In this document: in pieces, positions 14,039-23,955 of the stretch | Layout: each line of letters starts with the position of its first letter | Position numbering within the stretch: position 1 is the first letter of the stretch | Origin: an uncultured Verrucomicrobiae bacterium | GTDB lineage: Bacteria > Verrucomicrobiota > Verrucomicrobiia > Limisphaerales > JAFGQR01 | Length of the DNA stretch: 64,000 bases | Assembly (NCBI GenBank): GCA_963788655.1 | Contig: CAWBHS010000027.1 | Location: 1 to 64,000, forward strand | Direction of reading: 5' to 3' | The notes under the pieces: generated by a model | Seen by the model: only the letters and a program-made list of their open reading frames with translations | Database searches by the model: none | Told to the model about the DNA's origin: nothing | Program-made: the position numbers and the translations under genes

Positions 14039-14452
14039 TTCGGAGTTCCACAAGTTTTTTGGAATTGCCTTCCAAGGAGAAATTGGGCAAGAGCCCAGCC
14101 AACCAGTAATATAACTGCTGGAACGGCGATAGTGCCAGCAACGACAACTTCGATTGGTTGGTGGAAACTATGTTGGTAGGAGCCGCAGTGCATGACAGTC
14201 ATCCGCGGATCGCTGGATTTGAGACCAACGAATCCGTAGCTCCCACCAGGACCCTTGATAGTCCAGTTGTGTTCGATCTGCCTGGCTTTCCAGATGCGCA
14301 GCGCTCCGATTATTGCGAACGCGCATGCATGACTGATTGGCGAGCCACAAAGACCGCACCATCATCAATTTCATCGCGCCTCCGCCAAAATCGGCCGTCC
14401 CGCAGCCACCATCTGCCAGTCCCGCAGGGACGCCCGACAATAGCCCTCCGTT

Positions 14453-14887
14453 TCAACGGTGGGTTGGCGTGCGCCAAAGAAAATCGAGTCCCAGCGGGAC
14501 GAAAGAAATCCTACCGCACCATTTCCGCCAGGCCCGAGCATTCATCCGTGGTTTTCTTCCTGCAGAGACACCGTCTGAGCAGCTCAAGGAAACAACGGTT
14601 CCATGGTGCTGCCAATAGAAGGGCCGCCGATGCGGATGCATTACGGCTTTAATGTAGAGGGTATCGCCACGCACGCTGTAAACGATGGCGTAAGGGAAGC
14701 GATCGAAGTTGAGCTTGCGATTGTCTCCGCGGATTTTGCGCCAGCGCTCCGGTTCGGCCACGATGCGGCGCAAGGTCCGTTCGAATTCATCCAGGAAGTC
14801 ATCGCCGAGGCCCGGCTGCCGTTGTTCATACCACAGTGCCGCGCCTTCCAGTTCCTGCTCGGCTTCAGGATGGCTGACGACGTGCAT
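14453..14887 (-). CDS. RelE/ParE family toxin (expected stop near 14600 missing; reads on to 14453)
   Basis: HPEAEQELEGAALWYEQRQPGLGDDFLDE...RFPYAIVY...AVMHPHRRPFYW. Confidence 0.88.
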   Translation of the reverse strand: MHVVSHPEAEQELEGAALWYEQRQPGLGDDFLDEFERTLRRIVAEPERWRKIRGDNRKLNFDRFPYAIVYSVRGDTLYIKAVMHPHRRPFYWQHHGTVVSLSCSDGVSAGRKPRMNARAWRKWCGRISFVPLGLDFLWRTPTHR

Positions 14888-15110
14888 TGAGCTTGGCACG
14901 AATATTCCGGATGGTTTCTTCCAAGGGGCGGCATTGGACCTGGCCTTCCTCAATCTCGCGGGAGCGCCGGTCAATCACTTCGTTCCACTGCGTTTCGGCG
15001 TCAGCGTCCACCGTGCCGTCAAGGCTGGCGATGAGTTGGTGGGCCAGGTACGCCCGGTCCTGTTCCGGCAACGCCAGCATCTCGGCCACCTTTTCTACGG
15101 TTATGCTCAT
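14865..15110 (-). CDS. Putative addiction-module antitoxin
   Basis: LALPEQDRAYLAHQLIASLD...WNEVIDRR; overlaps toxin start. Confidence 0.88.
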   Translation of the reverse strand: MSITVEKVAEMLALPEQDRAYLAHQLIASLDGTVDADAETQWNEVIDRRSREIEEGQVQCRPLEETIRNIRAKLNARRQPS

Positions 15111-15473
15111 GCGCGAATAATATCGCCTTTGCCGCCAGAATGACAAGGGCCGCCCTCGGCGGTTTCTGGCAGTTACGCCGGAAGCTGAGAAGGTAGGCTG
15201 CGACGCCCTGACTTCCCCCCTGAGCGCATCCATCAACCCAAAGTCGGGCAACGGGAATTTTTGGTCTTGCCGTAACGATTCACTGGGAAAGGGGAGCGCG
15301 CCCGCCCCGGGCGCCGTGGTTGGCGCCTCGCCAACCACTTTCGAGCAGCCCGATTATCGTGCTAATCCGTATCTATGCAATTGCGGTAAGGCGGAACTGC
15401 CGTTCCACCATGCGACTGAGGCGCTTTTGCATAAGCGGGATAACATAGTAGCTTGGAGCCTGTTTGAAAAATG

Positions 15474-16475: not shown

Positions 16476-16913
16476 ATGCCTCTCGCGAAAGAAGAGCTTT
16501 GTCAGAAGATTTAGTCAGGCATTTGAGGGGGTGACGCTTGGCAATGGTATCGGGTTGTTCGAGGCAGACGGTGTTGACGAGTATGTTGACGAGGCGACTC
16601 TCAAAGCGTATCGAGAGAAGGATGAAAAGGAAGACTGGCAGCGCATTCCACTGGAGCGTCTACGTGGAGAGGGGCTTTGTTTCACCGATGCCGAAGGGGA
16701 CAGAGTTTCGTTGCCTCGGTCATGATCGCGGTGGTCCAGAAGGGCGTGGATGCGCCGGTCTTCATGCTGAAGGATCAGCCCCGGGACTTATTCGCTCTCT
16801 CACGCCCGCAAATAGAAGCGGTGCGCGAGTTCTTGCTGCTCATCAGGCACGATCCAGAGCATGGTCTAGATCGAACGGAGATTGAGAGCGCATTATCGGA
16901 ACCATGGAGATGA
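16476..16913 (+). CDS. Gene cassette 1: DUF6714-like protein (frameshifted)
   Basis: MPLAKEELCQKI..QAFEGVTLGNGIGLFEADGVDEY...LCFTDAEG...LFALSRPQIEAVREFL; family assignment from memory. Confidence 0.6.
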
Positions 16914-16929
16914 CAGACTTGACCCGAAG

Positions 16930-17052
16930 AGCCAACCAGACGCTGGAGGCAACAGCCGCTGAGTCAGGCATTATGACCGTCACTGGCAACACAACACCAT
17001 CGGATTCGATCACACCGCTCGCCAGCGGCTGTGCCTGCACTGATCGTTGGCC
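16930..17052 (+). other. attC site 1
   Basis: agccaac...aggcaacagccgctg ... cagcggctgtgcct...gttggcc. Confidence 0.85.
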
Positions 17053-17077
17053 GGAGAGGTATTCGACCCTTTGAGCC

Positions 17078-17449
17078 ATGTTCCTTGTCGAGAAACTGCG
17101 AGACGAGACACTTCCGGATGTCGAGGCATCCCTGGAGGTTCTTGTCCGGGAGATTTACGGCAGGCGTCCTGAGTGGCTGGAGTATGATTTGCGTGGGAGC
17201 TACCGGTTTCAGGGTCGAGAATTCATTATGATGTTCTGTCCGGCAGGTAGCGTGCATTCCCACCTCACCCTTCGAGCTTTGACCGGAGACGGAATCAGCC
17301 GCGACATTTTGCAGTTGGGGACGAAAGAAGGTCGTCGACTGGCCTGGTTGATTCGTCAGGGCAAGCAGTCGGAATATGATCCAGCCGAGGTCGAAGAGAA
17401 CGGCCAACCAGGCGCGTCAGGCAACCGCCGCCCCGCGCCTCGACATTGA
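17078..17449 (+). CDS. Gene cassette 2: hypothetical protein
   Basis: 123-aa ORF between attC1 and attC2, running into attC2. Confidence 0.65.
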   Translation: MFLVEKLRDETLPDVEASLEVLVREIYGRRPEWLEYDLRGSYRFQGREFIMMFCPAGSVHSHLTLRALTGDGISRDILQLGTKEGRRLAWLIRQGKQSEYDPAEVEENGQPGASGNRRPAPRH

Positions 17450-17529
17450 CCTTTGCCGGTGATATGAACGCCATCATTACCAAGCGTAGAGCCCGCTTCC
17501 GGCGGCGGTGCCTGCGCTGGTCGTTGTGC
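17402..17529 (+). other. attC site 2
   Basis: ggccaac-caggcgcgtcaggcaaccgccgcc ... ggcggcggtgcctgcgctggtc-gttgtgc. Confidence 0.8.
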
Positions 17530-17545
17530 CGAAAATGATTGCATC

Positions 17546-18190
17546 ATGACGTCGCGGGAGTTCTATCAGCTTTTGGATCGCTGCCTTGAGCCAGGAGTGC
17601 AGCCGGTTAGGGCTGTCTCGGAAGCGTGGCACCGTATCGCTATGGTATGCGACTCTTCCCCAGCGGCACTTTCTTCTACGAGGTTTCCAAAGGTCCGAAG
17701 AGTCCGTTCATCCCGTATCTCGGTGGACGGTTCAAGGTCGACTGTGATCTTGCGCCTTCTGCGGATCACAAGCTGCGGGGGTTGCAGACGGCGATTTCGT
17801 ACATGGAGTTCTTCTCCGATGATGATTTGATGGCCATGCAGCAGCTACGGGATCGAGGACCTGCGTAAGATCATCGGCCAGAAGCCACCCGAGGTGCTCG
17901 ACCAGTTGATGCTCGAAAGCCATACGCCCTTGTTCCGCTGGAGATTGGTTCGCAGTTTAGGAGGCATCAGGTTTTCAAGCTGCCGTACCTGGATGCCGAG
18001 GACGTCTCAGCATCGGGGGCAATTCCTCGCATCACGTATGGAGCACACCCTGATTGAGGTGCGGGAGAGACCGGTATTCTTCATGCGAGTCGAGAACGGC
18101 CAACCAGCGGGTGGAGCGAACGGGGACCAGCCGATTCGCTCGGGGGCAAATTCAACGTCGTCGGAGGCTGGTCCCCGTCGCTCACCCTGA
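17546..18190 (+). CDS. Gene cassette 3: hypothetical protein (frameshifted)
   Basis: Overlapping ORFs 17546, 17626 and 17894 fill the space between attC2 and attC3. Confidence 0.5.
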
Positions 18191-18199
18191 TCGTTAGCC
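18098..18199 (+). other. attC site 3
   Basis: ggccaac-cagcgggtggagcgaacggggaccagcc ... ggctggtccccgtcgctcaccctgatc-gttagcc; extrahelical bases evident. Confidence 0.9.
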
Positions 18200-18212
18200 C
18201 AATTCGTGCGTC

Positions 18213-18521
18213 ATGGACAAAGAGACGACCATTTGTTTTATCGGGCTCGTTGCCTCGGTGTATCTGTGGTTTTCGGCGATTCTTGTTCGGGGCATCTGGA
18301 TACAGCGATACGTCGTGCGCAATGGCCAGCGAGCAGCGCCCTTCGCCCTGACACTTTTCACAGGATGGGGCGTGCTGATTGACTATCGCAGAGCGCGCCG
18401 CATTGCAGCGCAGCAGCACCATACACCTTGGTTTTTGCGGTGCTTCGCGTGGCTTGCCGGGCTTGGTATGGTTGGCTTTATCAGCACGATGGGATACGTT
18501 TGTGTCACTGCATTCCTGTGA
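18213..18521 (+). CDS. Gene cassette 4: small membrane protein
   Basis: 102 aa with about three hydrophobic segments, bounded by attC3 and attC4. Confidence 0.75.
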   Translation: MDKETTICFIGLVASVYLWFSAILVRGIWIQRYVVRNGQRAAPFALTLFTGWGVLIDYRRARRIAAQQHHTPWFLRCFAWLAGLGMVGFISTMGYVCVTAFL

Positions 18522-18531
18522 TGATGATTTG

Positions 18532-18657
18532 GGCTAACAAGTCGGTGGAGACGAACCGCCGCCCCGCTTCTCCGTTCAACGCTGGGCGGCAATTCGAGAG
18601 TGCCTCGTGCGCTCCACCGTCCCTGTCGGCGGCGGTCGCTCACCTCTGGCGTTAGCA
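18532..18657 (+). other. attC site 4
   Basis: ggctaac-aagtcggtggagacgaaccgccgcc ... ggcggcggtcgctcacctctggc-gttagca. Confidence 0.92.
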
Positions 18658-18669
18658 CCAGACGCCCTC

Positions 18670-19065
18670 ATGACGCCGAAGCGCAAAAAGCTGTGGATTG
18701 GGTTGGGACTCTATGCCGTCCTCTGGACCGTTACCGGCGTTTTGGGGCTTCCACAGATTGACCGTGCTTTTGATCGGGAGTTTGCATCCGGTTCACCCGA
18801 TGCCTTCGCGACAGACGAGCATCCAGCGCGCAACGTGCCAGCTTCCAGGGTTCCCTACGTGCGAGTCACAGACCCGAGCAAGCATTCACTCCCCGACATT
18901 CCCTTCCGCAGCCGCTCGACTGGATTTCCCATCGCTCCATTCCTGGTCATCGATGAGGCTTGTGTTGCTGAGGCACCGCTTGCAGCCTTTTCCGGTCGGC
19001 GCATGGTTTTCTGGTTCTTTGGTTACACTCGATGGTTTCCTTTGAAAGTATGGTGGGTGTCGTGA
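18670..19065 (+). CDS. Gene cassette 5: membrane-anchored hypothetical protein
   Basis: MTPKRKKLWIGLGLYAVLWTVTG...WFFGYTRWFPLKVWWVS. Confidence 0.75.
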   Translation: MTPKRKKLWIGLGLYAVLWTVTGVLGLPQIDRAFDREFASGSPDAFATDEHPARNVPASRVPYVRVTDPSKHSLPDIPFRSRSTGFPIAPFLVIDEACVAEAPLAAFSGRRMVFWFFGYTRWFPLKVWWVS

Positions 19066-19069
19066 TTTG

Positions 19070-19195
19070 TGCTAACAAGTCGGTGGAGACGAACCGCCGC
19101 CCCGCTTCTCCGTTCAACGCTGGGCGGCAGTTCGGGAGTGCCTCGTGCGCTCCACCGTCACTGTCGGCGGCGGTCGCTCACCTCTGTCGTTCGGC
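19070..19195 (+). other. attC site 5 (near-identical to attC4)
   Basis: tgctaac-aagtcggtggagacgaaccgccgcc ... ggcggcggtcgctcacctctgtc-gttcggc. Confidence 0.92.
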
Positions 19196-19198
19196 CAA

Positions 19199-20400
19199 AT
19201 GAGACAGCTTTTGCCATTGTTGATAACTCTGATGCCGATGCTCGGCAAGAGCGAGCAAGCCGCCGGGCAAATGCCAGATGATTCAGTCCTTCATTTCAAG
19301 TTCGAAGTGTACAGCGGCAGAAGGCGGTGCCCTATATCGCACGCCCGGCTTTCGGACGAACTATGACAACCACGTTTTCGCGCTGAAAGTCGATTCCAAT
19401 GATCGGGTATGGGTTGGTACTGCCGAGCGGTTTAGGAGTGTATGACGGGAAACAATGGACACACAGAACGTTTCAAAACAGCATGCCTGCGGGACTCCGT
19501 CTGACTCTCGGATTGATTGCGGGAACCACGTGCGGTCCGTCGCATATCGAGGAAGGGCCACAGGGGACAGTCTGGCTCGGCGGTAATTTCGGAGTCTGGC
19601 GGTTTCGCGGGGGCACGTACGAGGAGCTGAGCTCGAAAATTGCAGGGATGAACAGCATGGCCGCCGATAGTGATGGCAGTCTCTGGGTCGTTGATCGGTT
19701 TCGTGTTTTTAGGTATGACGGCAAGAGTTGGAGCCAGGTCTTGTGTCCCTATATTGGCAAGCCTGCGAGCTTTGAGGCTTCCGGTTTCCGGGGAATCGTC
19801 ATCGAAACCAACGGATTTGTCTGGATTGGCGCTACTGCTTACCACGAGATGGAAGCTCCATTGGAGCATAAGGGCCTCATTTGGATAGTGGATCAGGACC
19901 GCAAGCAGCGAGCGGGTGGACCTCCCATGGCGCCGCTATTCGCGTTCGATGGAAATCGCTGGCGGGCTTTTGGCCCGGAGGAAGGACTGGACGCCTTTTA
20001 CAAAGGAAGGCAAGGGAGTGCGGACCGAGGCACTCCGAGAGGGTGGGCTGCTCCGCGTCTGAACCAAGCAGGCCAGTTGACAGTCGCGACGCCAAATGGT
20101 CAGTACCGGCGGGAGGGCGAGTCCTGGAAGCCGGTCGAGGCAGCTGATCTGTCCTTGGGCCAGAGATGGAAGCTTCAGATGCACGGTCGATTCGGAGATT
20201 ACGGAGAATTGCTTTATCGGGACGGGGATCGGCTTGTAACGGTCCAGCCGATCAGTGATCGAACCGGCGAGGTATTGGATCTGAGATCGGACACCTTCGC
20301 CTCGCTGCACCTTGCCGAAGACCCGGCCAGAAATTGTGTCTGGCTCGGAACATGGCATGGACTTTATCGGATTTGGGAGGATGGTGCGAAGAACAGATGA
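19199..20400 (+). CDS. Gene cassette 6: secreted beta-propeller-like protein (frameshifted 5' part)
   Basis: Signal-like MRQLLPLLITL; repeated motifs GTVWLG, DGSLWV, YDGKSW, GFVWIG, NCVWLGTWHGLY. Confidence 0.65.
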
Positions 20401-20415
20401 ACGAAGGATGATGAG

Positions 20416-20521
20416 GCCGAACCAAGCGACGGACCGAATGAGGAGGAGCGCCGGGCAGCCGCTTGCTCCAATCGAGCGTCTGTGGCGCGCTCCTCCTCAT
20501 CGGTCATCTTGATCGTTCGGC
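20416..20521 (+). other. attC site 6
   Basis: gccgaac-caagcgacggaccgaatgaggaggagcgc ... gcgctcctcctcatcggtcatcttgatc-gttcggc. Confidence 0.9.
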
Positions 20522-20529
20522 ATAAAGCT

Positions 20530-20922
20530 ATGTCCACCGCCACAAAGTGGAAACTGATCGCAATCATCGGCTGGATAATTGCGGTCGCGCTACTCGGTCT
20601 TGCGGGTTTGAGGACAGTGGAATCTCGCACAGGAGGTGGTTCTGCGATTGACTCGCCGGACGGGACGAGCACGGCTTGGCTAGACTCGTATCGGAAAATC
20701 GGGCCACTTGTTCGTGATACGAACGTGTGGATAGATGTTTGCATTCAGCCCAAGGGGATTTCCGGCGTTGCCAATTCCAGGTATTTGAGGTTTTCATGTC
20801 CCGATGCAGACATTGGGGATGAGATGTATGCTCGGAACCATGACGGAGCCATTTCTTGGAGTTCCGATTCCAGGACGGTTCGCGTGATTCTGCCCAGGAA
20901 GGAGATCGTGATTACCAAATGA
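20530..20922 (+). CDS. Gene cassette 7: exported/membrane-anchored hypothetical protein
   Basis: MSTATKWKLIAIIGWIIAVALLGLAG..SPDG..ISWSSDSRTV. Confidence 0.75.
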   Translation: MSTATKWKLIAIIGWIIAVALLGLAGLRTVESRTGGGSAIDSPDGTSTAWLDSYRKIGPLVRDTNVWIDVCIQPKGISGVANSRYLRFSCPDADIGDEMYARNHDGAISWSSDSRTVRVILPRKEIVITK

Positions 20923-21070
20923 GCACAAAGCCGAACAATCGCTGCAGGCAACAGCCGCTGCGCCGGGCAGTTGACCGGTTTATGAAACTTGAACATCATC
21001 ATTGCAGGCCACGCCCGCTTTCGGCGGCTGTGCCTGAGCTCATCTCTGAGGTGAGCGATCAACCAATTTT

Positions 21071-22409
21071 TCATTTTTTCTTCGCGGCTTTAGCGCCCTT
21101 TTGCTGGCGGCGGGTGTAGGGGTTTTTGCCTAACTCAATCTGATCGAACAACGCCACGATCGGGCTGCCGTGGCGACGCAGCGCTGCCTCATAACGCGCC
21201 TCGTCATAGACCTCGTGGCGCTGCCAGCAGCACCAGAGGATTCGCTGCCATTTGTAGGCCAGCGCCCGGATCGCGACGTGATGGCTGGCCCCCGCCTCGC
21301 GCGGTTGTAAGTAGTAGGCCGCGGCCCAGCGACTGAACAGGATCGAGCTGCCGGCATACTCGTGAAAGCTCTGCCGGCAAAACTTCGGACAGAGATAGCG
21401 CCGATGGACGTGTCGCTTGTTGCCACTCTCTTTGGTGACCGGGGCGATGCCACTGTAGCACTGGAGACTGACGACCGTGGGAAAACGCTCGCGCTGGCTG
21501 CCCACCGTGGCCAACAACCGGGGCGCCAACACCGAGCCGGCTCCGGGCAGGTTCTTGAAGATGACGTAATCGGGGTGCGCCACAAAGCGCTCCTTGATCT
21601 GCTGATCGTAGGTGTCAATGGCGGCGACGACCAGTTGGAGTTGGCGACAAATCAATTGCACGCGCAAGGCGTAGGTTTCCACCAGGGCCGATTCCTCGGT
21701 GAGAGCAATCGCCTGCCTAATACATTGGAGCCGCTGGTCCAGCCGGGAAGCGCTGTGGGAATTGTGCTGGCGATAGAATTGTTTGAGGGTGGCTGGCTTG
21801 ACCTTTTTGATCGCCGCCAGCGTGGGCCATTTCAACAACAAATCGGTGGCCAGCGGCCGCCACAGTTCCTCGCCGCACAGCGTCAACGCCTGCGGAAAAT
21901 AAGCCTTTAAGAGGGCTTGCAAGCGGTTGGTCAACTCGGTGCGTTCGTCCACCACCGCGCGGCGGTGGGTGACGGTTTGTTGGAGGTGGCGAGTGGCGCT
22001 GTCCTCGGGCATGCCACACGGTCAGCTTGTCGTGGTGAGTCAGCAGCAGTTCAGCTAAATAATAGGCGTCCTGGGTGTCGTCCTTGGCGCGGCTGGTGAC
22101 GAAGGCTTCCCGGAAATTTTTCAACGTCATCGGGTTGATGGCGTAGAGGGTAATCCAGGCATAGCCTTCCAGGAAGGCCAGGAGGTTGGCGGCGGGTTGT
22201 TCCACGCAGATCGCCACCCGGCCCTGGGGATGTTGCTGGCGCAGTTGGGCCAGCCAGTCGTGGAGGGCCTCGGGACTGGTGCCGATGGTTTGGTTGGCAC
22301 GCTGGTGGGTGCGCACGTCAATCGTGTGGAGATCGGCGGTGGCATCGGAGCGGTCCAGGCCGATGACCAGGTCATACGGATAATCTTGCTTCATCGTCGA
22401 ATCATTCAT
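21071..22409 (-). CDS. IS110-family DEDD recombinase/transposase (frameshift near 22015)
   Basis: VIGLD, CVEQP, RAKDDTQDA (DEDD RuvC-like); LPGAGSVLAPRLLA, YSGIAPVTKESG (Tnp domain Ser-Gly), AIRALAYKW. Confidence 0.93.
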
Positions 22410-22435
22410 GGTTTATAGTTGGGTGGTTTTCCCGC

Positions 22436-22600
22436 AGGCTTGACCCGGCGACGGTAATATAGAAGAGTTCTGACTGCAAGCGCGAACGCCCTCTGAGAAG
22501 TCGTTAGAGGGTGCAAGCCCGCCCCGTGGGCCGGTCGATAAAGCTCAAAGTCGTCCAGGCGACTGGTCGTTCGCAGACCTGGCCCACAGAGGCGAGAAAA
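22436..22600 (-). ncRNA. Predicted IS110 bridge RNA (target-binding and donor-binding loops)
   Basis: Two consecutive stems with internal loops; loop segments match the attC7 target and the IS circle junction on opposite strands (see findings). Confidence 0.8.
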
Positions 22601-22763
22601 CCGGGATACCCTACGGCACCGATGCAACGAATGCGAATAAGTAAATGTCATCATCAACAGTTCGGCGGCGCAGTTATTGACCGGCGGCTGCGGCGGAGCA
22701 ACGCGGAGCGCGCCTGGCCACCGGTGAATAACTGCGGATAACCTATATTGATCGTTATGCGGC

Positions 22764-23093
22764 ATGCGTACATTCCCAACAATGAGAGTTTGGTTGCCAG
22801 TCATAGTCGGTTTTGTCTTAGGCTTGTTTTTTGCATTGCCTGTTTTGAGCCGAGGTGTAGGTGATTGGTTTGAGGGCCATCCAATGACGAATCAGATTTA
22901 TGAAGTGTTGCATTTTCCAGCTATTATTTTGGCGTATCTCTTCGGGTTTATGTCCAACCCAAGCGAGATTGGCGCGGTTGGCGATGCTTTACCATATACT
23001 GTCATCATTCAGTGGCTCTTGGTTGGCTTTGTTATCAGCGCGATTGTCTATTGGAGGCAGTGCCGCCGTGAACATGCAAAAGACCTCGCCTAA
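22764..23093 (+). CDS. Gene cassette 8: membrane protein
   Basis: AT-rich, about three TM segments; stop TAA lies in the gcctaac box of attC8. Confidence 0.75.
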   Translation: MRTFPTMRVWLPVIVGFVLGLFFALPVLSRGVGDWFEGHPMTNQIYEVLHFPAIILAYLFGFMSNPSEIGAVGDALPYTVIIQWLLVGFVISAIVYWRQCRREHAKDLA

Positions 23094-23213
23094 CAAGCGG
23101 ATTCACACGAACCGCCGCCCCGCGTTTCAGTTTCGATGCGCCGGGTTCTTCGCACACTGGATTCGCTGCCAGTGGCCGTTTCCGGCGGCGGTCGGTGATC
23201 CTTGGCGTTAGTT
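23088..23213 (+). other. attC site 8
   Basis: gcctaac-aagcggattcacacgaaccgccgcc ... ggcggcggtcggtgatccttggc-gttagtt. Confidence 0.9.
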
Positions 23214-23490
23214 GTGACATGAAGTCGCATTCATCACTGCTGAGCATGGGCAACCTGACTCAGCCCTGCCTTTCGCGGCAGGTATTCCAGGGGAGCATGC
23301 GTTGGGCGGGCGGCCGCAAGGCTACTGTCCAGGGTGTGAAGCCTTCCCGACAATGTAGCCAGCCTGGGAGCCTCAATCCGGGTGCGGCGCTAGAATTGGA
23401 TGGTAGGGTCAACCCACGTGAACACTCGCAAGCATCGTCAGAGGAACGAGCCAGACGAGGCTGTTTTAAGGCTTCGATCAGAAAATAGCC

Positions 23491-23760
23491 ATGAAGAAGG
23501 CCCCAACTGTTTATGCCCTGCTGTTTATTAATCTAGGCATTTTCGTAGCTACGGTTACTTTCTTGCCAAGACGGGGATCATGGGGTTCCAGCGGGCCGCT
23601 CAGTTACTTCCTCAATTCTCGTGCTCGTTGGGATATCGCATGGGGCGTCCTCGTTGCGGGCATTATCCTTTCTATCGGCATCATCTTTTTACTTTACGCT
23701 AAAGGCGCATTTGAACAGAAACCAAAGAAGATTGAACAAGCCGTCGATCCTAACGCCTGA
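23491..23760 (+). CDS. Gene cassette 9: small two-TM protein
   Basis: 89 aa, AT-rich, ends inside attC9. Confidence 0.7.
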   Translation: MKKAPTVYALLFINLGIFVATVTFLPRRGSWGSSGPLSYFLNSRARWDIAWGVLVAGIILSIGIIFLLYAKGAFEQKPKKIEQAVDPNA

Positions 23761-23855
23761 CCCGCCCCGAGACGGAAGCGTCATGACAACTCAACCCTTA
23801 CCCCAGCAGTCGGAGCGCGTCCTCGGTCAGGCGTAGGATGACTCCAACGTTCGTG
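23731..23855 (+). other. attC site 9
   Basis: attgaac-aagccgtcgatcctaacgcctgacc ... ggtcaggcgtaggatgactccaac-gttcgtg. Confidence 0.75.
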
Positions 23856-23955
23856 GTGACATGAAGTCGCATTCATCACTGCTAACGCCGATCACCTTTG
23901 CCTCTGGAAACTTCGCAGTCCCTGGTTCGAAGACGGGGAAAAGGGAGATCGGGTC

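Follow-up and report, generated by a model that had tools for sequence, protein, structure and literature searches.

What guides an IS110-group insertion sequence into the middle of an integron recombination site? The window analysed here, a 64,000-nucleotide stretch of DNA from an uncultured Verrucomicrobiae bacterium, carries such an element on its minus strand (21040-22748; 1709 bp including the core A at both ends), which splits an attC site between its L' and R' boxes. A first-pass annotation had read a bridge RNA in the DNA upstream of the recombinase gene and had named attC as its encoded target. On our assessment, this locus is, with a probability of about 85%, correctly described as a bridge recombinase system of the IS110 group that targets integron attC sites. 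Comparison with other copies and with relatives establishes the element, its target, the RNA fold, guide-flank covariation, conservative junctions and a variable register at the sequence level.

The element ends were fixed by aligning six copies in the source genome whose flanks differ; these are the copies with recognisable ends, and one further fragment is present. The window copy is 96.6% identical to the copy on contig C48 and 88.3% identical to the intact copy on contig C59 (58354-60062). At its left junction (22742-22749, minus strand, placed by the copy alignment and by relatives) the target core AA (22749-22748) is followed by TATAG(G), which constitutes the right half of the donor and the -10 box of a predicted circle-junction promoter. 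The right end (21040-21062, minus strand) contains a -35-like TTGATC (21062-21057), the left donor half CAGAGAT (21048-21042) and the donor core GA (21041-21040). When the ends are joined, a TTG hexamer stands 17 nt ahead of TATAG in 88 of 92 elements, the TATAG half having also been used to define the ends. A promoter scan of the linear element found no site at the left end. Contigs from 4 of 13 listed sequencing runs contained no end-to-end joint, an outcome that has no bearing on whether circles form. Subterminal inverted repeats matching at 7/10 or more positions are present in 87 of the 92 elements, with 5/10 in the window copy. Among parsed relatives the left end spans 320-436 nt, the upstream non-coding region being ~340 nt long, and the right end is shorter than 40 nt.

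The DEDD/serine bridge recombinase gene (21071-22409, minus strand) is recognised by PF01548 and PF02371 on two pieces. It carries a +1 frameshift near 22012, a one-base insertion that the paralogs lack. The C48 copy, the C49 copy (at many places) and both C40 copies are frameshifted as well, which may reflect decay or assembly error. The intact paralog on C59 (P0002, 445 aa) scores 163 bits against NF033542 (cut-off 140). Its residues D19, E70, D111, D114 and S328 are invariant across 35 relatives and align to the catalytic set of IS621, and an N-terminal DEDD domain (PF01548) with a C-terminal PF02371 domain bearing the catalytic serine places the protein in the broad IS110 family. A search of solved structures with the single protein gave no match, and the same search with a family profile matched IS621 and ISCro4 alone (E ~1e-10 to 1e-11). 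Proteins of the family are 430-445 aa long; among named elements, ISCfr13/ISCps4-like IS110-group proteins come closest to them, at 39-42% identity.

Upstream of this gene lies the two-loop core of a predicted bridge RNA (22425-22602, minus strand), comprising a closing helix, a target arm and a donor arm, and delimited by folds, a 31-sequence consensus and pair counts. A long hairpin precedes the core, and the 5' stem-loop of the left end predicted by folding (22661-22739, minus strand) is probably the 5' part of the RNA; the base of its stem is conserved across 107 left ends. The two stems with internal loops that had been described from the window alone are borne out: the centroid fold of 22425-22602 is two-armed, and a large internal loop in either arm contains guide segments (z -3.37, 0/200 shuffles), and the longer interval 22410-22750 folds with z -3.88. 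A consensus built from 31 non-redundant sequences takes the same two-loop shape. Across homologues, the comparison that the first-pass annotation had proposed as a check, 97.9% of the cells in 46 chosen pairs are paired (slid controls, 28-52%), and compensatory changes on both sides occur in 9 of the 46 pairs (shuffled mean 2.9, 0/500). Several stems are invariant, and the inner stems vary so little that they are uninformative for the fold. The donor-arm inner stem as originally drawn competes with the left donor guide. An RNA model made from the family alignment matches upstream of relatives down to ~37% protein identity; Rfam holds no family matching the bridge RNA.

The guide segments are placed on the minus strand as follows. 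The left target guide (22563-22571, 9 nt, AACGACC-AG) has the same sense as the attC bottom-strand R' box and spacer, and matches the window's left flank at 6/7 positions; in parsed examples it occupies a constant 12 nt between stems. The right target guide, UGAGC-UU (22541-22547, 7 nt), is complementary to the core and the start of L', and is directly followed by the handshake position of the target loop (22540-22538). In the donor loop, the left guide CAGAGG (22490-22495) has the same sense as positions 1-6 of the element's right end; the right guide CUAUA-UU (22456-22462, 7 nt) is complementary to the core and the left end, and the handshake position lies at 22455-22454. All four segments originally picked out, AACGACCA (22571-22564), UGAGCUU (22547-22541), CUCAGAG (22497-22491) and CUAUAU (22462-22457), are where they had been placed. 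Two of these readings needed revision. While CUCAGAG is present in the window, its contiguous form belongs to a minority of relatives (9 of 99 parsed), most of which have an extra base after CUC, and the conserved left donor guide is (C)AGAGG. Likewise, the positions of the right guides stand, but each is 7 nt long (UGAGCUU and CUAUAUU) and includes the core. The annotation had also cautioned that the donor-left match ends about 3 nt short of the junction. This is a family trait, because the left donor guide never extends beyond position 6: positions 1-6 pair and positions 7-9 do not, both in the window copy and in distant relatives with a CT core.

Certain loops deviate in length or content. 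A short palindromic repeat of ~33 nt is inserted just before the right guide in the target loops of L078 and L089, and a palindromic insert of ~15 nt enlarges the apical loop in L059 and L068, with the guides kept in each case. In the second copy on contig C40 (C40b, L004:4140-4335) unrelated GC-rich sequence stands in place of the target loop, yet the copy still sits in an attC; trans mobilisation, later replacement or assembly error may account for this.

The target was proposed to be an attC site, and the flanks of the window copy agree. The left part (20930-21039, plus strand) contains R'' (20930-20936), L'' (20941-20948) and L' (21033-21039), and the right part (22748-22760, plus strand) a 6-nt spacer and R' (22754-22760). 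Rejoined, they form a 123-nt attC with R boxes matching at 5/7 and L boxes at 7/7, a score equalled by 1 of 60 shuffles, and fold into a hairpin. The cut borders the unpaired central spacer, and a near-identical empty site with the same spacer is found on contig C9. The surrounding cassette array (16900-23860, plus strand) is of the CALIN type, made up of small genes with attC-like ends. No integrase match was found on the window contig, C27; an integron integrase lies 6 kb from the intact C59 copy (TIGR02249, 391 bits, cut-off 265). The window site shows the hallmarks of an integron attC: an imperfect R''/L''/L'/R' palindrome with an extra base, an array, and an integrase in the same genome. 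Eight further attC-like R' ends, picked by eye, are present in the window array, and none of the eight has A+GCTCA.

Among relatives, 60 rejoined sites retained enough flank for a rule-based attC test, used in place of a curated attC model, and 33 of them passed. Seven failures had no AAC; others kept an L-box partner and had a poor or lost R'', and some were off-target or retargeted insertions. Whole-site DNA folding was discarded as an attC test for poor discrimination (26/60 against 44/180 shuffles), as was a generic genome-wide attC scan, which was too noisy (1287 matches, with 46 on one strand of a shuffled 1.5 Mb); empty attC sites of the source genome were taken from a seeded BLAST in its place. 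Three of the six copies in the source genome fit their guides imperfectly: C49 has two mismatches to the right guide, C40a has an unrelated right flank, and C40b has the replaced loop described above.

The family was sampled by protein, not by flank. A protein search yielded 4325 matches among 8000 candidates. Protein motifs were then used to retrieve 70 loci from species genomes, most of which carry a Verrucomicrobiota label, together with the best 80 of 501 metagenome loci. A recombinase match was obtained in 162 loci, and the left end was found by pattern in 107 of these. The pattern required ATATAG and thereby left out at least seven full-length members (L036, L135, L051, L129, L110, L049 and L062) in which the first base differs or the end has changed. 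The target loop was parsed in 103 elements (all but L078, L089, L068 and C40b), and removal of two duplicate sites left 101, with the right flank available in 90 and the left flank in 93.

The position of the core was settled with the help of distant relatives. A first 14-nt frame, in which donor TG and target CA shared no core, was replaced because relatives with a CT core place it one base further; the change left the covariation counts as they were and shifted the position numbers. These relatives (L094/L101, L010, L077, L079, L083, L028 and L192) have CT at the junction, share 35-47% protein identity with the family and occupy non-attC targets, namely REP-like palindromes and other repeats. 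Their left guides match their own left flanks, and wherever the right end was found their right guides match the right flanks. In L094 and L101 (47%, Verrucomicrobiae), the target is a palindromic repeat, CCCTCACCCC...CCCTCTCCC, and the guides match in two copies. Since the CT-core relatives correct the position by homology, the attC family is aligned as donor CAGAGGT-GA-TATAG and target AACGACC-(A/G)A-GCTCA. This is the 7+2+5 frame of IS621, for which a 14-nt frame and a top-strand cut after position 9 are described (PMC11208158), and by homology the top-strand cut would fall after position 9 here too.

In this frame the family has a purine-A core. The donor core is GA, with G at its first base in 88 of 90 right junctions, and the target core is AA or GA in 91 of 93 left junctions (A in 65, G in 26). 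The first core base remains with the left partner. In 65 of 93 insertions the donor core (GA) and the target core (AA) disagree. The right target guide opposes the core with UU in 92 of 101 elements. Donor-like bases ending in AGAGGTG were seen at the left junction of L137, and a target-like A at the right junctions of L181 and L059; heteroduplex repair over positions 6-9 could be their source. The handshake base of the donor loop is G in 100 of 101 elements, the exception being the window copy. AU directly follows the right target guide in 47 of 101 elements and stands one base later in most others. The loop bases at these positions are consistent with the handshake of IS621; on the DNA side, insertion sites show no enrichment over empty attC, which has similar bases there.

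That these segments act as guides is supported by their covariation with flanks. The proposed layout, with left guides same-sense and right guides antisense in both loops, is upheld by this covariation and by natural retargeting. Over 90 insertions the right target guide matches the core A and five flank bases at 497 of 540 positions, compared with 457.4 +/- 3.4 when partners are permuted (0/5000). Kinship was controlled by drawing one random member per cluster, with 68 clusters at 90% and 48 at 85%. The right guide then gives 275.6 against 255.6 (90%) and 189.9 against 170.3 (85%), and the variable positions of the left guide 122.4 against 95.8 and 82.9 against 67.3; across 100 draws of 300 permutations each, none reached the observed value for either guide. 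A GGTCA-type guide occurs in four separate places in the DNA tree, each time with an AGG flank, and a U-type guide at the first flank position pairs with A or G flanks, as wobble allows. In four relatives (L117, L124, L142 and L154) both guides have changed and the elements sit in non-attC repeats or hairpins, with tandem repeats of the AAGCCACC/ATGCGACC type, or the base of a long hairpin, as their flanks. Three of these four, with both ends found and placed in trees, form one clade nested in the family. The donor side covaries too: distant relatives carry CAGAUG, CAGAAG or CAGGUG with matching right ends, in L049 and L062 the left end and right donor guide have changed together in a compensated manner, and among CT-core relatives the right donor guide ends in AG.

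In the strict register the left target guide matches at 5/7 or more positions in 29 of 93 left flanks and at 3 or fewer in 58, and the model therefore needs sliding. When a 5-nt seed of the guide may shift by two bases, 4-5 of its 5 bases match in 89 of 93 flanks, compared with 295 of 3271 random right-guide-matching sites of the source genome. Among the 87 elements with an AACG guide, the R'-L' spacer is 4 nt in one, 5 nt in 10, 6 nt in 29, 7 nt in 36 and 8 nt in two, with AACG absent from the range in nine. Variable guide bases track the flank most clearly in the 7-nt class (87/108 against 68.3, 0/3000), then in the 6-nt class (57/87 against 49.1, 12/3000), the 5-nt class being weak alone (18/30 against 13.0, 110/3000 permutations, n=10). 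The window site has the 6-nt, IS621-like register. In the source genome, three copies with the same guide occupy A+GCTCA sites with 5-, 6- and 7-nt spacers; the A+GCTCA motif is found in 2 of 66 parsed empty attC and occurs six times overall.

Empty sites carry these spacers, which therefore pre-exist insertion. Empty attC of the source genome mostly have a spacer of 5 or 6 nt. Across 401 genomes of the order, the 7-nt empty site is the commonest, with ~113 of the 150 matches listed (a hand count; 203 more matches are unlisted, and one order-wide match comes from G310). The form expected had a base been gained on insertion accounts for 1 of the 150 matches listed. With a second empty-site pattern the 7-nt form was found in 10 of 19 and the base-gain form in 0 of 19. 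A first, local test was mixed, with 21 best matches to a conservative junction and 11 to one gained base. From these natural insertions we infer a variable left register, in which the left guide seems able to accommodate targets that differ in length.

A mechanism for the family can now be proposed, in which expression, the circle, cleavage chemistry and the handshake are modelled on IS621. The element would depart as a circle, and the joining of its ends would create both the donor (CAGAGRT-GA-TATAG) and a -35/17/-10 promoter transcribing the left end. The resulting bridge RNA would be bound by the DEDD/serine recombinase, its donor loop reading the circle junction and its target loop reading AACGACC-(A/G)A-GCTCA, which on the attC bottom strand covers the R' box, the L'-R' spacer and the first bases of L'. 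Top strands would be cut after the core A and then exchanged; the two U's of each right guide would accept either A or G at the start of the core, and handshake bases placed as in IS621 would favour the exchange. The right guide and core would set the cut, while the left guide would anchor on the AACG of R' and tolerate spacers that differ in length by one or two bases. Insertion is antisense to the cassettes, at a fixed base beside L', with no bases gained or lost. With L' separated from R', the attC would no longer fold for the integrase.

Three other accounts of these insertions deserve consideration. One holds that pairing is confined to the right guide and core, with the rest supplied by the recombinase or by the open state of an extruded attC, and that AACG is incidental to every attC. 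The poor fit of the left guide in strict register speaks for it, as do half-match insertion by IS621, which has been reported (10.64898/2026.08.31.748434), and the position of the cut beside the unpaired central spacer. We nevertheless regard this account as quite improbable. Within the attC class the variable left-guide bases track the flank, most strongly in the displaced 7-nt register, and the retargeted relatives switched their left guide along with their left flank. Furthermore, pairing by the right guide alone would scatter copies over the ~2400 AGCTCA sites of the source genome, 64 of which have AACG upstream. Extrusion of attC may still act as a helper.

A second account, which is unlikely though a shade less so, retains a strict IS621-like register and ascribes off-register copies to a later change of spacer, to bases gained at the junction or to trans mobilisation by copies whose guides differ. 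The near-invariance of the donor loop makes trans mobilisation plausible, and the C40b copy is suggestive of it; the 11 base-gain matches in the local test speak for the base-gain variant of this account. Against this stand the order-wide survey, where the 7-nt empty site is common and the base-gain form all but missing from the matches listed; the constant length of the left guide in parsed examples, with no longer-guide copy seen; and the three same-guide copies in one genome with three spacers. Finally, the element might be an ordinary member of the IS1111-attC group, which shares the kind of target and the antisense orientation (PMC3001079) as well as subterminal inverted repeats. This can hardly be correct given the long non-coding region upstream of the gene and the short right end, a protein of 430-445 aa as opposed to 330-350, and nearest named relatives in the IS110 group.

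In the reading that we favour, an RNA-guided recombinase aimed at attC, the parts may be joined as follows, although we hold this fuller picture to be about an even call. A widespread clade would use an elastic target loop, in which the cut beside the attC L box is set by the right guide together with a purine-A core read by wobble, and a left guide of fixed length anchors on the R' box over 4-8-nt spacers, with guide or DNA bulging. On this view the IS110/IS1111 superfamily would have captured attC independently at least three times, at opposite ends of the site, and the clade would represent one of these captures.

The family belongs to the IS110 group and works like an IS621-type bridge system, while lying outside both the IS621 clade and the IS1111-attC group. 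In the IS110 group the bridge RNA lies upstream of the gene, and in IS1111 downstream (PMC11208160); here a long non-coding upstream end carries a two-loop RNA whose guides covary with target and donor. The shared CT core and 315-330-aa protein of the IS621 clade are absent, as are the downstream guide RNA and 330-350-aa protein of IS1111-attC elements. The family resembles IS621 and ISCro4 (IS622) in its left-end RNA with a 5' stem-loop and two internal loops and in the sense of its left and right guides (PMC11208160; PMC11208158; 10.1101/2025.05.14.653916). It also shares with them the 14-nt frame with a 2-nt core at positions 8-9, a predicted junction promoter, the DEDD and serine residues, and the handshake-position bases, A-U in the target loop (A81/U82 in IS621) and G in the donor loop (G166). 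It differs from IS621 in protein length (445 aa here, 328 aa there, the two being distantly similar by profile), and in its purine-A core, which is often mismatched between donor and target where IS621 has CT. Moreover, left guides here leave the donor core unpaired and the left register varies, the target is attC instead of REP, and most members have 8-9-bp subterminal repeats.

RNA-guided attC targeting is already described for ISKpn4, ISPst6 and ISPa25, whose seekRNAs are encoded downstream of 330-350-aa transposases (PMC11187229). With ISPa21, these IS1111-attC elements share with the present family site-specific insertion into attC antisense to the cassettes, RNA-guided there and by prediction here, a DEDD recombinase and, in most members of the family, subterminal repeats. 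They differ in the downstream position of the RNA and in their shorter proteins (~440 aa here), and they insert near the attC 5' end, probably on the R'' side (PMC3001079), as opposed to between L' and R'. Group II introns of the IIC-attC type are likewise mobile and use RNA-DNA pairing to find attC (PMC3001079), but with a retrohoming ribozyme and reverse transcriptase in place of a DNA recombinase. Closer by protein is a Klebsiella plasmid relative of the ISCfr13/ISCps4-like kind (L189, 412 aa), which is 39% identical over 403 aa and by eye closely resembles ISCfr13 as listed (ISfinder names as given in the source data of PMC11187229). The RNA model matches several relatives of this grade; they differ in having a CT core and other targets (REP-like palindromes and repeat ends). 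The 27 family members included in a 44-row protein tree group on a single branch (100/100) amid CT-core relatives. This tree was built without the broken L071 and L028 and without IS1111-attC proteins, and has L064 on a long branch. With the family lying among CT-core elements that have other targets, attC targeting is best read as having a separate origin in the family.

In the accessible literature, including PMC11616780, PMC9229058 and PMC11089894, we found no upstream-RNA IS110 element in attC. A motif search of the readable parts of the Durrant supplements returned no family member, and the main text of 10.64898/2026.10.21.760802 contains no mention of attC, integrons or Verrucomicrobia, although the 32,190 loci of that work may include the family. 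Guide RNAs and their targeting of attC are known, and no new principle is claimed here. What is new is the separate attC-targeting origin, the purine-A core and the variable left register. Beyond the first-pass annotation, our analysis adds this core and the multi-register left guide, the earlier publication of RNA-guided attC targeting and the broken state of the window copy.

These features have some practical bearing. Bridge recombinases are under development as programmable editors, and the published rules derive mainly from IS621 and ISCro4, in which the CT core is matched and the 14-nt register rigid. The family offers ~100 natural guide-target pairs, mostly from Verrucomicrobiota. These pairs suggest that a different core can serve, that a mismatch at the first core base is tolerated and that the left guide can shift by one or two bases, all of which bears on retargeting range and off-target behaviour. 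If the proposed reading is true, a natural bridge system exists that is non-CT, mismatched in its core and tolerant of target length. For integron biology, it would represent a second, unrelated RNA-guided way to split attC and freeze cassettes. Verrucomicrobiota genomes hold very many attC sites, and integron arrays would be a contested niche for RNA-guided elements.

Other arrays and relatives yielded further observations. In Pseudoalteromonas (NZ_CP013139; L193:6942-14400), a small-gene array with attC-like repeats contains three IS110 genes in antisense orientation. Two of them, encoding proteins of 422 aa (40% identical to P0002) and 318 aa, have long upstream leaders and start at CT on the R'' side of the repeat, and the guides of the 40% relative fit its R''-side attC-like site. 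Upstream-RNA IS110 elements thus seem to target attC in Gammaproteobacteria too. On one short contig of the Terriglobales (Acidobacteriota), a relative at 47% identity (L069:~1000-1320 and right end) lies between the L'' and R'' boxes of an attC-like site; the guides fit, and the right target guide matches the GTT box. In the source genome, two integrase-like genes stand in tandem at the head of the array on C59 (L186:6147-8726), the second apparently broken, and integrase-like genes are also present on C49 and C69. Within the window, 5' remnants of group II introns lie right after two attC R' boxes of the array (23213-23400 and ~23855-23885), with an Rfam D1D4-7 match at 23264-23389. Upstream of the array are a ParE toxin and addiction-module antitoxin pair (14453-15338) and an Acido-Lenti-1 match (14418-14463).
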